Shown: positions 1-8,323 of the stretch, piece by piece
Layout: each line of letters opens with the position of its first letter
Numbering within the stretch: the first letter of the stretch is position 1
Translations under genes and position numbers: made by a program
Source: Promethearchaeota archaeon
Lineage (GTDB): Archaea; Asgardarchaeota; Thorarchaeia; Thorarchaeales; Thorarchaeaceae
DNA: 8,325 nucleotides
Assembly: GCA_027031765.1 (NCBI GenBank)
Contig: JALVPN010000220.1
Coordinates: 1 to 8,325, forward strand
Direction of reading: 5' to 3'
Notes under the pieces: model-generated
Database searches by the model: none
What the model was told of the DNA's origin: nothing
The model's input: the letters and a program-made list of their open reading frames with translations, nothing else

Positions 1-28
1 CTGTCCGAGTGAATTTGAATTGTTATGT
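1..28 (-). mobile_element. Putative 5' part of an integron attC recombination site, truncated by the window edge
   Basis: The minus strand reads ACATAAC-AATTC-AAATTCACTCGGACAG and overlaps the TAA stop of the toxin fragment. This resembles the R'' (RYYYAAC) / spacer / L'' start of cassette attC sites of the TAACAAnnnAATnCACTCGGAC type. R'' is an imperfect match, and the L'/R' half lies outside the window. Confidence 0.5.
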
Positions 29-262
29 TTCACTTTCATCTGGCAATCTGAGGATTCGTTCACTGCGCCACACCCTTATGAGATGAATTGAGTCAAACTC
101 TCTTAAATAAACAACTCTAAATGGAGGATGAATTAACTCCCTTATTTTCTCCTCACTGAGACCGGAGAGCATACCCGTCTTTAGGGCTTTGATTGTGATG
201 TCCTCACTCAAGTCTATAGCCTGGTTCATCATCTCAATAATATTAGTGTTCGGGGAAGCCAT
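23..262 (-). pseudogene. Chimeric ORF: C-terminal half of a RelE/ParE-family type II toxin (about 23-157) fused to an unrelated ~35-aa N-terminus
   Basis: The C-terminus EEKIRELIHPPFRVVYLREFDSIHLIRVWRSERILRLP matches the RELIxPPFRIVY...VRVWRSERLL tail of RelE/ParE toxins. The expected N-terminal half (W/S..A..DL..I..Y... HP..GR.VPE) is absent. GC is about 37% over 1-150 and about 47% over 151-260. Confidence 0.7.
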
Positions 263-630
263 CGTTTCTGGTGCGGGTGAGTGTCAACTTACAGTCTGGG
301 CTTGAATGTCATGGAGTCCAAGTCCACACCAACTGTTGATTGCGGGTGTGACAGACCTGGGCATGTGGCTCGTGCTGTCCGGCTACGGCTCCTGCCGCAG
401 GCCGCAGGGTGTGTTGATGAGAGTGGGAACCACAGGTCGCTGGTATGGGCAGGTCTGGTGCAACTGCGGTCAGGTGCGGGCCTAGTTCCTTTCGTGCAAC
501 ACCGGGCCACATAGTATCGGTACTAGATCCGGCCCATGAGGCCCAAGACTCTGCAAACACACATATGCACAGGTGCGTTCGTACCGCAGTACCCCGGGAC
601 CGTGGCCGGATGTGGCTACGGGTCGCGGTC

Positions 631-636
631 AGGAGA
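631..636 (+). promoter_or_regulatory. Shine-Dalgarno-like AGGAGA upstream of ATG 647
   Basis: AGGAGA lies 10 nt before ATG 647. The ORF residues upstream of this ATG (536-646) do not look protein-like. Confidence 0.5.
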
Positions 637-646
637 AGACAGTCTG

Positions 647-1948
647 ATGACACATGACAGTCGCAGTCAATACAGTGCACTACTCAGTGCGTCTTCCAAG
701 CTCCTTGAGAGTGCAGAGTGGCCAGTGCGTCTTGGTGCCGCGACCGGCCTGGCATGTATGGCCCCCAGCCCTGGGCTCTGCGACCGGGTAGCGGCCATGT
801 TGGGCCCTCATTTCAGCGACTGGGCCGCCAGCGTCCGGCGTGTCGCGGTATTTGGGGCTGCTGTCGGTACCGCCTGCTCACGCGGAGTGAATGAGGCGGT
901 AGCCCTGATGGGCCGCCTGCTGCCGGGTGATGCCTACACTAGGATTGGGGTCGCGCTTGCCCTAGGTGTGGTCGGCATCACAGCAGACGCTGTGAACAGA
1001 ACCCTAGACATCCTGATGATGTTCCAGCAGGACCAGTCACCGGGGGTCAGGACTGCGGCCGCTCTGAGCGCAGGTATGTTGATGGGTATACACAGGCCTG
1101 CCGGAGTGCCAGACATCGTGAGCACGGAGGACATGTTCGGCGGGCCGAGGGAACGGCAGGCCGTAGTGCTGGGCACTGCGCTCGTGGGAGCTACAACGGG
1201 GCGCCCAGAGAGCGTGGAGGCAGTGATAGGACTGCTGGACAATCCCATGGACGGGCCCACACCGGCCACACTGCTGGCCCGTGCGCTGGCCGCTCTCTGT
1301 CGGGGCAGTCTGAGTGAGGACGCGGACGCACTGAGGGAGTATCTTGGGAGTGGAGAGTGGGCCGCCCGTCTGGGTGCTGTCCTCGGCCTCAGCCTGATGT
1401 GTGCAGAGTCCCACAGACCACTCATCACTCCGGACGACCTCCGTCCCCTGCTCTCTGACCCCAACTGGCAGGTATGCAGGACTGCAGCATTTTCGATGGG
1501 CGCCGTACTGGCTGCACAGGACGATGGACCACTGAAACCGCTTGCGTCTGCGGTCAAGGACGGGTCGAATACTGTACGGGCGGCTGCAGGATGGGCACTG
1601 GTACACCTTGTTGCAGGAGGTCGGGGGGACATCGCAGCACCACTCCTCGAAAGGCTGCTCAGTGACGACTTTGGGCCTGCGCGGCGAGCTGCAGCCGTAG
1701 GCATTGGAGTCCTCGAAGGGCGCGTGGGCCACGCGGCAGAAGACTGGACGCCTCCAAGAGTGGTCGTGCACGATGACATCTATGTGCGTCAGGGAGGCGG
1801 GACTGCTCTCGGGCTGTCCGTTGCACTAGACCACGCCCCCCTTGCTGTGGCACGTGGGGTTGCGCTGCACTACGCTGACGTACTGCCGGTTGAGACCGCG
1901 CTCCCGCTGGCCAGTGCTCTGGACCAGCAACGCGTGAGCGGGCAGTAG
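647..1948 (+). CDS. HEAT-like / PC (proteasome-cyclosome)-like alpha-solenoid repeat protein, 433 aa, about 11 repeats
   Basis: Long ORF with a recurring unit [L/F]xxDx(1-3)xVRxxAAxxLGxx, e.g. LESAEWPVRLGAATGLA, DQSPGVRTAAALSAG, GSGEWAARLGAVLGL, LSDPNWQVCRTAAFSMG, KDGSNTVRAAAGWAL, LSDDFGPARRAAAVGIG, HDDIYVRQGGGTALGL. The start was moved from 536 to ATG 647 on RBS evidence. Confidence 0.8.
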   Translation: MTHDSRSQYSALLSASSKLLESAEWPVRLGAATGLACMAPSPGLCDRVAAMLGPHFSDWAASVRRVAVFGAAVGTACSRGVNEAVALMGRLLPGDAYTRIGVALALGVVGITADAVNRTLDILMMFQQDQSPGVRTAAALSAGMLMGIHRPAGVPDIVSTEDMFGGPRERQAVVLGTALVGATTGRPESVEAVIGLLDNPMDGPTPATLLARALAALCRGSLSEDADALREYLGSGEWAARLGAVLGLSLMCAESHRPLITPDDLRPLLSDPNWQVCRTAAFSMGAVLAAQDDGPLKPLASAVKDGSNTVRAAAGWALVHLVAGGRGDIAAPLLERLLSDDFGPARRAAAVGIGVLEGRVGHAAEDWTPPRVVVHDDIYVRQGGGTALGLSVALDHAPLAVARGVALHYADVLPVETALPLASALDQQRVSGQ

Positions 1949-5109: not shown

Positions 5110-5564
5110 TTGCTGACATGGGGCTTCGGTGCATGCAACAGAGAAGAGATGGTGCGTTTCATTGCACAGTTCAGACAGACCTCTGCCGGACTGAAACAGC
5201 GAGGAACACCGCTCACTCTTGAGGCTGCAGGCGAAGAACTGGACTATTGTATGGGCCGGGGTTGTCCGATATTCGTTGCAGTGCACGAGGACCGCGTGGT
5301 CGGATATCTGGTGTGCTGGGTCGACGAGGACACGGTGTGGACGGAGTCGCTGTATGTCGTACCTGCCCTGCGCCGCAGAGGGGTGGCATCTGCCACGTAC
5401 GAGGGGGCCGAGGAGTTCGCATGGACTCTGGATGGCGGCACAGTCCATAGCCCTCCTCAAAGGCCGCGGACACGATGCCGTCAACCTAGTCGAAGTGCAC
5501 CGGTGCGTACAGGGACGAGCAACTGGGGAAGATTGCTGTCGTCAGCCACGAGTTCCGATACTGG
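5110..5564 (+). pseudogene. GNAT-family N-acetyltransferase pseudogene with two frameshifts and a probably lost stop codon
   Basis: Frame 1 carries PIFVAVHEDRVVGYLVCWVDEDTVWTESLYVVPALRRRGVAS (acetyl-CoA motif A). At about 5446 the protein-like sequence moves to frame 2 (IALLKGRGHDAVNLVEVHR; GNAT motif B, ..FL...GY..LNL.E.R). At about 5504 it moves to frame 3 (AYRDEQLGKIAVVSHEFRY), followed by TGG where a TGA would be expected. The start is uncertain (TTG 5110, or ATG 5118 with a further shift). Confidence 0.75.
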
Positions 5565-5629
5565 TCCTTGCAGGTAGTTGGCGCCCCCGTGCCGGCCAGT
5601 ATGTTGAGCAACACGACTACTACCCACGA

Positions 5630-5836
5630 CTAGTCCAGCGTGCTCTCAAGTGCGAGCGCAGTCCGAACAGCCTCGCGCACCGTATCGGCAACGTACAACA
5701 TACCGCACTCAGGTCGTACCCCATTTTCCTCTCTTGGATCTCATTCCAGACACACGTGGCTATCAACCCGGTGCACATCACTACCCAAGAGTCCCCGCAC
5801 CACATCAATGACATGGGCACTACCGCGTACGTTCAT
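5630..5836 (-). pseudogene. Possible decayed remnant of a LOG/TIGR00725-like Rossmann-fold gene
   Basis: One frame gives MNVRGSAHVIDV...HVCLE*DPREENGVRPECGMLYVADTVREAVRTALALESTLD*, with an internal TGA at 5741-5743. A shifted frame gives GAGTLG* at 5787-5801. These resemble the LOG-like motifs NVRS.DAVI.VGGG.GTL and A.T.EEAV..AL. The similarity is short and judged by eye. Confidence 0.3.
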
Positions 5837-5962
5837 GCTCTGTCGAAGTATTGCTGGCGAATAGCAGAGGACAGCCAAAGAACCTTTTTCTTGAGAGATG
5901 GAGTGACCTATTCGCCTCCGGCCACCGAGAACGTCATGGCACAAAAGGGAGACTTGAACGCT

Positions 5963-6091
5963 ATGCCGACATGCAGTGACTGCAAGTACTACAGACCAAT
6001 AAATGAGAACGAGGGCGATTGCTTGGGGGCCAAGGTACCTGCTGACAGGGATGCTGGGCTGTGTCCTGCTAGGGCGTTCACACCCAAGTGA
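5963..6091 (+). CDS. 42-aa four-cysteine miniprotein, putative [4Fe-4S]/Zn-binding, resembling BssC/HpdC-type small subunits
   Basis: The sequence MPTCSDCKYYRPINENEGDCLGAKVPADRDAGLCPARAFTPK has a C-x2-C-x12-C-x13-C motif. A purine-rich AAGGGAG at 5945-5951 precedes ATG 5963. An alternative ATG is at 5936. It is hidden at the end of the composite ORF 5219..6091. Confidence 0.75.
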   Translation: MPTCSDCKYYRPINENEGDCLGAKVPADRDAGLCPARAFTPK

Positions 6092-6382: not shown

Positions 6383-7885
6383 CTACCACACCCACATCCC
6401 GAAGAGCTGGAAGACGACGGCCTGAGCGAAGACTATGGCCAGCAACAAGCGACTCTCTCTGCGGCTCATGTCTGTCCTCATGATGTATGTGAGCACCGGG
6501 ACGAGGAGGAATGGTAGGACGAACATGCAGATCCTTGCGGTCTCCCCTTTTTTCGGCGTCCCGGCCAAGAACAAGAGTGCAAGGGAGAGGAGTGCAGCCT
6601 TGACCAAGCTGTACTCTGTTGGAAACTGCCCACCCGTGACCGCCTCCCCCCTCATCGTCACGAGCCCCCGGTATGTGAGGACGCACATTGCAGGGCCCAG
6701 GAAGACCAAGATGTCCATGACATCCTGTACGCGCGTCACGACGTATTCGACTGGACTCGCCACGAGCATGAACCCACCCGGGTTCTCAAGGGAGCTCGCG
6801 TAGAGGAATGCATCGACGTAGTTGAAACCGGTTGTCACGAACAGCAGCAGGTAGACCCCGCCGACACTGGCTGTGACGAGGAGAGGAAAGCCCATGGGAC
6901 GCAAGACGCTGGCCATCCGGGCGAGCAGGCTGTTGTTGTCGGCCCCGGCAAGTGCCCTGAGCCCCTCGAAGGTGAAGAGCAACAGCACTGCAAAGACAGA
7001 CAGGAACGTAATGAATGTCAGCAGGAATAGACAGACCGAAGAACCCAGAAATGCGACACGCCGGTCTTCGTAGAGGTAGAAGTACACGACGCCCGACACC
7101 AGTGTCGCCACTACTGCATAGACGTTCGCAAGATAGTACACCTGGACTGCTGGGAGGAGCAGGTAGAGGAGCACGGCATATGCTGCTGTTTCCTCGTCCA
7201 CGCCAAGGAGTCTCACGAGTATGCCCCTGATGAAGAACGCCGAGCCGATGGCTGCGAGCACACAGATGGCAATGGCCACTGCGCCCGGTGACCCTACCAG
7301 CCGATAGAGCACGTATACCAAGAGGACTGCTCCAGGTGGCTGGGTCTGCGCATGCACTGTGAGTGTCGGTTGCAGCTCCTCATAGTTGCTGATGAAGTCG
7401 ACTATGCTCACAACTCTGGGCAGATCAGTAAAGAGCTCCAAGGGCCCTGCAATAGGCTGCACTATGCCGGCGTCCCAGCCATGGACCAGACTGGTGGCAA
7501 TGATGGACAGGGTGCCGACCACGGCCGCCTGCCAGACACTGAGATGTGCACCTTCCCGTCTGTTGAGGTGTCCCAAGCAGACTGCTGCAATGACTGCAAT
7601 TGGCACAGCGACCATCAGCTCTCGGACACCCGGCAACACCAGCTGACCCCACAGAGGCCAGCTGTCGAACCTGCCATACGTGCATGTCCCATCCCGTGGT
7701 GGCGGACCGGGCGGTGGGGGACCACCAAGGTACCCTCTCGCAGATGCGGGGCCCAGTAAGAGGCGATATGCAACGACCACTACGATGATGCCGAGGAGCA
7801 CTGCGGTGTAGGCCCTGAGGTTCTCTCTACTGAGGAGGACTCGATGTCCTGCGCCACCAGCAGCCCGTGATGTGATGCCCGTCAT
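6383..7885 (-). CDS. Polytopic membrane protein, GT-C-fold glycosyltransferase-like (mannosyltransferase-like), 500 aa
   Basis: It has more than 10 hydrophobic segments. The loop GWDAGIVQPIAGPLELFTDLPRV...FISNYEELQPTLTVHAQTQPPG resembles the GW..G...EY...HxxxHPPG loop, and KKGETARICMFVLPF resembles the KxExxRIWLPF motif, of uncharacterised GT-C membrane proteins. Confidence 0.7.
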   Translation of the reverse strand: MTGITSRAAGGAGHRVLLSRENLRAYTAVLLGIIVVVVAYRLLLGPASARGYLGGPPPPGPPPRDGTCTYGRFDSWPLWGQLVLPGVRELMVAVPIAVIAAVCLGHLNRREGAHLSVWQAAVVGTLSIIATSLVHGWDAGIVQPIAGPLELFTDLPRVVSIVDFISNYEELQPTLTVHAQTQPPGAVLLVYVLYRLVGSPGAVAIAICVLAAIGSAFFIRGILVRLLGVDEETAAYAVLLYLLLPAVQVYYLANVYAVVATLVSGVVYFYLYEDRRVAFLGSSVCLFLLTFITFLSVFAVLLLFTFEGLRALAGADNNSLLARMASVLRPMGFPLLVTASVGGVYLLLFVTTGFNYVDAFLYASSLENPGGFMLVASPVEYVVTRVQDVMDILVFLGPAMCVLTYRGLVTMRGEAVTGGQFPTEYSLVKAALLSLALLFLAGTPKKGETARICMFVLPFLLVPVLTYIMRTDMSRRESRLLLAIVFAQAVVFQLFGMWVW

Positions 7886-7907
7886 GGCAGGTCAGTCAGC
7901 TGTGCGA

Positions 7908-7925
7908 CAGTATATGCACTTTTGC
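7908..7925 (-). promoter_or_regulatory. Putative archaeal BRE-TATA promoter for the GT-C gene (probably leaderless)
   Basis: The minus strand reads GCAAAAG-TGCATATA-CTG. The AT-rich box is centred about 28 nt upstream of ATG 7885 and preceded by a purine run. There is no SD before the ATG. Confidence 0.45.
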
Positions 7926-7981
7926 CGGACTCCGTCCTGTTCTGGCCCAGTTCTGACCCAGATCTGACCCAAATCCGCTGG

Positions 7982-8323
7982 TCAGTCAAGACTGATGTAC
8001 AGGAACGCAACAAGTGCTACGCCAGCGAAGATGTCGGGGATCAGGACAAATGGTCCAAGCCCCTGGGCGCGGAAGCCAAACAGCAGGTGCAGGAGAGGGT
8101 TTGAGGCCACGGCGTACAGCAGCAGAGCGGCCACGATGAGGACGAGCCCGAGTGTGAAGCGCGTGTGGAGAGTCCTATAGATGTCCACGTACACGACAGT
8201 CAGTGCCATGGCAACGATGGCATTGAAGAACGAGAGGAACGCCTTGACTTCCAAGAGCAGCGCCATTGTCGCAGGGTCGGCCAGTGGTGGCGGGGGCTGT
8301 GCTTCGGGCGGCGGGAGGGCAAT
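7982..8323 (-). CDS. Small archaeal multi-pass membrane protein of unknown function, 5'-truncated by the window edge
   Basis: The frame stays open upstream of ATG 8266 to the window end (IALPPPEAQPPPPLADPAT-MALLLEVKAF...). It has three hydrophobic helices and the motifs IYRTLHTRFTLGL, SNPLL and FGFRAQGLGPF..IPDIF, recalled from a family of small archaeal membrane proteins whose members carry a Pro-rich segment at this position. Confidence 0.75.
   Translation of the reverse strand: MALPPPEAQPPPPLADPATMALLLEVKAFLSFFNAIVAMALTVVYVDIYRTLHTRFTLGLVLIVAALLLYAVASNPLLHLLFGFRAQGLGPFVLIPDIFAGVALVAFLYISLD

Follow-up and report, generated by a model that had tools for sequence, protein, structure and literature searches.

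The stretch of Thorarchaeota DNA analysed here (8,325 bp, the window) carries at 647..1948 on the forward strand, stop codon included, a gene for a stand-alone repeat protein of 433 amino acids (aa), delimited from a list of open reading frames (ORFs) with their translations and called P0001 below. We think that P0001 is probably an eleven-repeat toroid of the proteasome/cyclosome (PC) type, a diverged solo copy of the ring module of Asgard STAND nucleoside triphosphatases (NTPases) that would work as a docking platform. An original prediction, made from the DNA letters, had described a solenoid of about 11 repeats with almost no other domain and with a PC-repeat character recalling the proteasome subunits Rpn1 and Rpn2. 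It had proposed that, in an Asgard host, the protein could be a minimal prokaryotic relative of the PC toroid and hence a candidate eukaryotic-signature protein.

A stand-alone protein of eleven repeats

The repeat count of the original prediction is borne out. P0001 consists of 11 helix-turn-helix repeats, each anchored by a conserved arginine (residues 28, 64, 99, 135, 170, 211, 241, 278, 311, 346 and 381) at a spacing of 30-41 aa (median 35), and BLOSUM autocorrelation along the sequence is maximal at lags 35-37 (500 shuffles, z = 4.9). The Gly/Ala-rich motifs quoted earlier are all present (GAATGLA at residue 30, GVALALG at 101, GAVLGL at 243 and DDIYVRQGGGTALG at 376), the loose consensus of the units reads D...VR.AAAlGL, and the Ala+Gly content stands at the 99.9th percentile among the long ORFs of the genome. 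DSSP applied to the structural model described below recovers 11 helix pairs together with an N-terminal cap helix (residues 5-20; 659..706, +) and a C-terminal tail (residues 398-433; 1838..1945, +) that is predicted to be helical, with a predicted local distance difference test (pLDDT) below 50. The eleven ~36-aa repeats themselves occupy 701..1867 (+), as placed by the periodicity, the Arg anchors, the model helices and the ring fit over residues 3-403; the least regular units are repeats 4-6 (residues ~150-220, pLDDT 56-67). A Pfam scan found no domain besides the HEAT-type repeats, in agreement with what had been claimed, and neither a signal peptide nor a membrane segment was apparent in the sequence. 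From its sequence, the product is thus read as cytoplasmic and made of repeats only.

By the Pfam models P0001 is a member of HEAT_2 (PF13646; 61.5 bits, 9.7e-17, cut-off 27.7) and not of PC_rep (PF01851; gathering score 21 bits), for which the protein gave no match even at E <= 10; the general HEAT model was also passed (47.8 bits, 7.8e-13, cut-off 23.5). The comparison of these two families, suggested as a check at the outset, therefore went to HEAT_2. Scanning the genome with PC_rep in six frames gave a match in contig C95 only and none in the window. With P0001 as query, NCBIfam returned sub-threshold noise (for example CpcF at 16 bits, cut-off 220), PADLOC returned nothing, and the neighbours in the ESM Atlas all belonged to HEAT, HEAT_2 or HEAT_PBS clusters. 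Among sequences in the PDB, the top matches overall were synthetic alphaRep designs (6e-9), covering residues 265-389 only, while the best natural match was Rpn2/PSMD1, at a weak E of 6e-4 to 1e-3, in which P0001 58-353 was aligned with residues 385-690 of Rpn2, the PC region. The N-terminal 262 residues alone again retrieved Rpn2 at the top (8e-4), and this alignment is in register, with D..VR.AA..S.G motifs and an A-G-T-G-type turn followed by the second helix. On sequence, P0001 is thus a member of the HEAT superfamily with a weak lean to PC repeats.

The predicted fold matches known PC toroids

AlphaFold2 was run on an alignment of 29 rows (A1), most of them generic HEAT_2 proteins, and gave a model of P0001 with a pLDDT of 78.9 and a predicted template modelling score (pTM) of 0.79. 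As a comparison of its profile with the PDB shows, A1 consists mainly of generic HEAT_2 sequences, and the comparison is silent on PC versus HEAT. In a Foldseek search of the PDB, the model matched Rpn2 chains at TMq 0.56-0.63 and a root-mean-square deviation (rmsd) of 6-9 Å, compared with TMq 0.27-0.39 and 15-25 Å for PP2A-A, karyopherins, armadillo proteins and alphaRep. VIA-align of the model against 48,161 PDB representatives gave the best fit with Rpn2 (8amz_N; Z 26.5, 4.5 Å, 383 aligned), together with Rpn1/PSMD2 (7ujd_A; Z 20.8, 5.0 Å, 370 aligned) and APC1 (4ui9_A and 8a3t_C; Z 13.4 and 12.1, 5.3-5.8 Å, 372-378 aligned). Other matches of like length, open HEAT and armadillo (ARM) solenoids included, lay at 9-24 Å. 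These PC-toroid fits span residues 3-403 of the model and leave the tail mostly outside. Since the whole chain is fitted only by the three known PC toroids, the model is read as a closed ring, and P0001 most likely closes into a PC-type toroid as in Rpn2, Rpn1 and APC1, as judged from the model.

The fold check that had been proposed earlier, a search for a closed toroid, thus turned out in favour of one, with Rpn2, Rpn1 and APC1 as the only matches at low rmsd. The claim of PC-repeat character came through in part: the period of ~36 aa (against 31 aa in alphaRep and PBS-lyase repeats), the ring model and the natural match to Rpn2 speak for it, and the silence of PC_rep speaks against it. Likewise, of the two features that had been named in advance as refuting a PC relative, an open superhelix is not what was modelled, while the absence of a PC_rep signal is what was found.

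The same data were weighed for an ordinary open solenoid of HEAT_2 type, a generic protein-binding scaffold for which the ring would be an AlphaFold artefact arising from PC-like repeats. Such a solenoid would account for Pfam matches confined to HEAT_2 and HEAT with PC_rep silent, for alphaRep designs as the best PDB sequence matches overall, for the HEAT_2/HEAT_PBS neighbours in the Atlas and for the pLDDT of 56-67 over residues 150-220. We nevertheless regard it as rather unlikely. The model reaches a pTM of 0.79 and superimposes on Rpn2 over 383 of roughly 400 residues, at an rmsd well under that of the open solenoids; the period of P0001 is 35-36 aa and not 31; the input alignment of mostly generic HEAT_2 proteins did not push the prediction toward a PC ring; and a homologous Thorarchaeota module, described below, is modelled as the same ring at pLDDT 92.8.

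The closest kin are ring modules of STAND-like NTPases

Searches for relatives of P0001 returned few sequences. A word-indexed search of 5.8 billion sequences for proteins of similar length found P0001 itself only, a corresponding search for longer or fused forms found none, and no relative was found when genome contigs were searched with P0001 for related loci. An exhaustive phmmer search of 1.84 billion representatives returned 103 matches, and only one of them besides P0001 itself fell below 1e-15. This protein is P0002 (1,040 aa, 79.8 bits). Its N-terminus is weakly nSTAND_NTPase5/Avs2-like and its twelve 36-aa repeats are very regular; residues 7-391 of P0001 align with its residues 607-996 at 30% identity, end to end and with coinciding C-termini. 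No orthologue of P0001 was found in 40 relatives of the host or in 400 Asgard genomes; the best E there was 5e-12, and the region matched was always the repeat array of proteins of ~1,080-1,200 aa.

We examined ten of these repeat-array genes (loci L075-L084), nine of which form an orthologous family with 33-54% identity whose members are annotated 'HEAT repeat domain-containing protein' (for example NWF96016.1, here P0011). The nine have a common layout, in which a P-loop STAND-like N-terminal half is joined by a Pro/Thr-rich linker to a C-terminal module of ~432 aa. The N-terminal half matches nSTAND_NTPase5 or NPHP3_N below the cut-off, and for the one Thorarchaeota protein compared with the PDB, this half gave no match. 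The module in this main Thorarchaeota family ends in a conserved tail motif, GE.FWG..PL.HDEC...LRYG. In hhalign, P0001 matched the nine modules at 98.7% (E 1.6e-16, 304 columns). HEAT_2 was matched in all nine modules and PC_rep was passed in four (best 9.7e-13); P0011 passes PC_rep with 35.6 bits. When the nine modules and P0001 were combined in one alignment (A2), the resulting profile retrieved yeast, plant and human Rpn2 from the PDB at 2.6e-29 to 7e-28, in a single in-register stretch (138-372 against 441-673 of Rpn2), and Rpn1 at 3e-18 to 1e-15, with Rpn2 and Rpn1 reported as the best natural PDB proteins, ahead of PP2A-A (2.8e-18).

An AlphaFold2 model of one module (L075), made with A2, reached pLDDT 92.8 and pTM 0.91, with two confident tail helices at 404-415 and 422-438. 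VIA-align placed it on Rpn2 (Z 28.9, 3.7 Å, 407 aligned, to the last residue), Rpn1 (Z 24.9) and APC1 (Z 19.9), and Foldseek gave TMq 0.69-0.73 for Rpn2 and 0.69-0.71 for Rpn1, with open solenoids at 0.25-0.43. An Rpn2-like ring is therefore a confident predicted property of the closest kin of P0001, and it backs the less confident model of P0001 itself. By position, the tail of P0001 corresponds to the two C-terminal helices of the Thorarchaeota module, the tails past the last repeat being equal in length. In the crystal structure of Rpn2 (4ADY), two axial helices fill the centre of the ring. The Rpn2 alignment of the module extends through its tail helices; in P0001, residues 398-433, at most a tentative counterpart of the axial helices, are the least confident part of the model.

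The host, too, carries the long gene, divided by the assembly between two contig ends with the middle, which holds most of the repeats, unassembled. Its N-terminus lies at C131:3546-4247 (+; locus L097, 42% identical to L075 aa 1-235), and C95:4515-4847 (-; L098, 46% identical to L075 aa 847-954) holds a fragment of its ring. P0001 is therefore an additional solo paralogue beside the host's own long STAND-ring gene. We propose that the ~432-aa C-terminal ring of the ~1,100-aa STAND-like NTPases found in Thorarchaeota and other Asgard archaea would have been duplicated as a solo, lineage-specific copy, which then would have diverged strongly and fast; identity between P0001 and any ring module is only 22-30%.

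The family of long proteins is itself patchy: of 85 genomes in the family to which the host belongs, 11 gave a match (E <= 1e-25). The neighbourhoods of the ten STAND-ring genes contain no conserved proteostasis neighbour, and genes for VWA proteins and histidine kinases lie near the gene in some of the ten loci. The only recurrent neighbour, in four of the ten, is a family of ~720 aa without a Pfam match, whose members are located at L078:795-2969 (-), L081:799-2955 (-), L084:7300-9054 (+) and L083:7916-8512 (+).

An orphan gene in a variable island

The window makes up an entire contig (C220) in an archaeal metagenome-assembled genome (MAG) of 2.95 Mb, 229 contigs and 59% GC. A small-subunit ribosomal RNA fragment of the genome fits the archaeal model, and the proteasome beta subunit is 76-84% identical to those of many Candidatus Thorarchaeota MAGs, in line with the Asgard host that the original prediction had supposed. 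At the far end of the window, a 500-aa polytopic membrane protein and an adjacent 113-aa small membrane protein (6383-8323, -) have orthologues, 41-61% identical, only in the same Thorarchaeota family, an observation on which mis-binning of the contig was considered and rejected. The pair is syntenic in the three loci inspected (G004:C29, G003:C26 and G017:C151), and P0001, an 871-aa surface protein and a GNAT gene of the window are missing from all three. P0001 is therefore located in a variable island, and most of the contig (1-6380) is variable.

The reading frame of P0001 opens at ATG 647 and continues without interruption for 433 codons, up to the stop at 1946-1948. A second in-frame ATG at 536 would add 37 Gly/Cys-rich residues; we prefer the start at 647 because AGGAG, a possible Shine-Dalgarno-like site read from the letters alone (631..635, +), lies 11 nt ahead of it. 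The gene is monocistronic, divergent from an upstream ORF of 79 aa (23..262, -) and convergent with the gene for the 871-aa surface protein. From either start, the P0001 polypeptide has no N-terminal P-loop STAND-like NTPase. We also considered and rejected the idea that a long gene had broken and left P0001 as its tail: the upstream spacer (263..646) holds no NTPase remnant, and the neighbouring gene is divergent. GC content at third codon positions (GC3) is 0.64, inside the genome range of 0.71 +/- 0.06.

Two further features of the window were noted. The GNAT acetyltransferase ORF (5110-5577, +; Acetyltransf_1, 4.8e-9) is overlapped in another frame by an ORF of 290 aa without a family match (5219-6091, +). 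In the spacer between the genes of the 500-aa and 113-aa proteins, an 11-bp unit, GTTCTGACCCA, is present in three tandem copies (7939-7971).

Several points weigh against the view of P0001 as a diverged but functional PC-type ring. As noted, P0001 escapes the PC_rep model. The alignment behind the predicted ring is shallow and heterogeneous (29 rows, mostly generic HEAT_2 proteins), the middle third of the chain is modelled at pLDDT 56-67 and the C-terminal tail below 50, and closure is judged from superposition of the model on toroids. P0001 has no orthologues, and the extreme Ala/Gly content together with the degenerate middle repeats could reflect relaxed constraint.

These last points bear on whether the gene has any function of its own, or is instead a duplicated STAND ring domain in decay or neutral drift. 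The orphan status, the location in a variable island, the low identity to every ring module, the irregular middle repeats, the low-confidence tail and the Ala+Gly content at the top of the genome's distribution would all fit such drift. We consider it improbable, however, as the frame of 433 codons is intact and free of stops, all 11 units of a model that is confident overall retain the helix-turn-helix pattern, GC3 is within the genome range, and a plausible ribosome-binding site precedes the start.

Lack of orthologues and genomic context also bear on a possible role in proteolysis. P0001 could be a functional relative of Rpn1 and Rpn2, a minimal archaeal base subunit that docks PAN or the proteasome and receives ubiquitin-like tags. 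The fold matches to Rpn2 and Rpn1, the place of Rpn2 as best natural PDB sequence match and an Asgard host with four proteasome-subunit genes would be in keeping with this. Yet a core partner of the proteasome should be conserved, and no orthologue was found in the 400 Asgard genomes or the 1.84 billion representatives; within its variable island, the gene lies next to those for a surface protein and a GNAT and not to proteostasis genes, with no proteasome, PAN, MPN or ubiquitin gene among its neighbours in the window; P0001 lacks both the helical rod at the N-terminus and the domain at the C-terminus of Rpn1 and Rpn2; and the closest kin are STAND NTPase rings, with no PC_rep match in P0001. 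We hold this to be very unlikely indeed. In short, no link of P0001 to the proteasome was found, and in our reading it is not a proteasome subunit. Because there is no orthologue in 400 Asgard genomes, P0001 cannot be a conserved archaeal forerunner of Rpn1 and Rpn2, and the proposal of a eukaryotic-signature candidate was not supported by the finding of an orphan whose nearest kin are STAND rings without proteostasis neighbours.

PC-like repeat proteins elsewhere

Single repeats passed PC_rep in only 8 of the 400 Asgard genomes, and none did so in 14 control genomes. Free Asgard proteins of 477 and 481 aa, with textbook PC-like repeats (GLIF.GTG..E....L.PLL.D....VR.GAA.G.G), score above the PC_rep cut-off and carry hydrophobic, membrane-anchor-like tails (L011:940-2370 (-), that is G033:C91, and L086:940-2382 (+), that is G033:C53). 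Other Asgard proteins of 670 aa combine an N-terminal array of PC-like repeats with an unrelated C-terminal domain, and one of 840 aa carries near-identical tandem PC-consensus units (35 bits with PC_rep for a single unit); the loci of these 670- and 840-aa proteins are L008:700-2709 (-; G027:C62), L088:1078-3093 (+; G038:C150) and L085 (G325:C131). Two metagenome proteins, P0024 (879 aa) and P0027 (461 aa), match PC_rep at 1.5e-25 and 9.4e-31, and one of the two is fused to a Ser/Thr kinase domain. PC_rep-positive proteins outside eukaryotes thus exist (P0024 and P0027).

Possible role and significance

Ligands of STAND NTPases are sensed by the C-terminal repeat domain. In Rpn1, Rpn2 and APC1, the ring serves as a rigid docking platform, and we suggest that the ring of P0001 may likewise offer one or more partner proteins a rigid place to dock. 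Freed from the NTPase, it could bind, titrate or present ligands of its ring class; most plausibly it would be an adaptor, buffer or decoy, binding ligands like those of the NTPase-borne ring but sending no signal.

In the solved structures and literature searched, the only proteins for which a PC toroid is described are the eukaryotic Rpn1, Rpn2 and APC1, and no PC repeats or relatives of Rpn1 or Rpn2 are described in Asgard archaea or prokaryotes. The predicted Asgard rings are a possible prokaryotic source of the scaffold common to the 26S proteasome and the cyclosome. The stronger version of this idea, in which an Asgard stock of PC-type rings, free or on STAND NTPases, was ancestral to Rpn1, Rpn2 and APC1 and P0001 is a functioning minimal platform docking in its host on an AAA+ unfoldase (PAN or Cdc48) or on ubiquitin-like tags, seems to us very improbable. 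The weight of P0001 itself is limited, as it is an orphan, not conserved and without a tie to proteolysis, and is the least conserved member of the ring class seen. As a ring alone, it is the smallest form seen in the family of this genome and suggests that the module can be detached from the STAND NTPase; at 433 aa and without extra domains, it would be a handy construct for structural tests of ring closure and for partner fishing.

Comparison with known systems

P0001 shares the helix motif D..VR..AA.ALG with HEAT_2/PBS-lyase repeats such as those of alphaRep, MTH187, CpcE/CpcF and YibA. The repeats of these proteins differ from those of P0001 in being ~31 aa long and in forming open right-handed superhelices, and HEAT_2/PBS-type proteins fit the P0001 model only locally or at an rmsd of 8-18 Å. 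With the Thorarchaeota STAND module, P0001 has in common its size (~432 aa in the module), the ~36-aa period, a tail of equal length and an Rpn2-like predicted ring; it differs from the STAND proteins in having no NTPase domain, no conserved tail motif and no synteny.

Rpn1 has 9-11 PC repeats of up to 40 residues, and the T1 site on its ring binds ubiquitin and ubiquitin-like (UBL) domains (PMC8405992). Compared with Rpn1 and Rpn2, P0001 has only the ring (433 aa, where they have roughly 900-1,000 aa), with neither an N-terminal helical rod nor a C-terminal domain, and it differs further from Rpn2 as an archaeal orphan with no PC_rep match and no genomic or other tie to the proteasome or to the APC/C (anaphase-promoting complex or cyclosome). 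The repeats of P0001 nevertheless have their counterpart in the PC toroids (Rpn2/PSMD1 in 8AMZ chain N, in 4ADY and as chain U of the human 26S proteasome; Rpn1/PSMD2; APC1), which likewise have eleven repeats of ~35-40 aa, and P0001 resembles Rpn2 in particular in its predicted closed ring and in the VR..A..(L)G motif of the inner helices.

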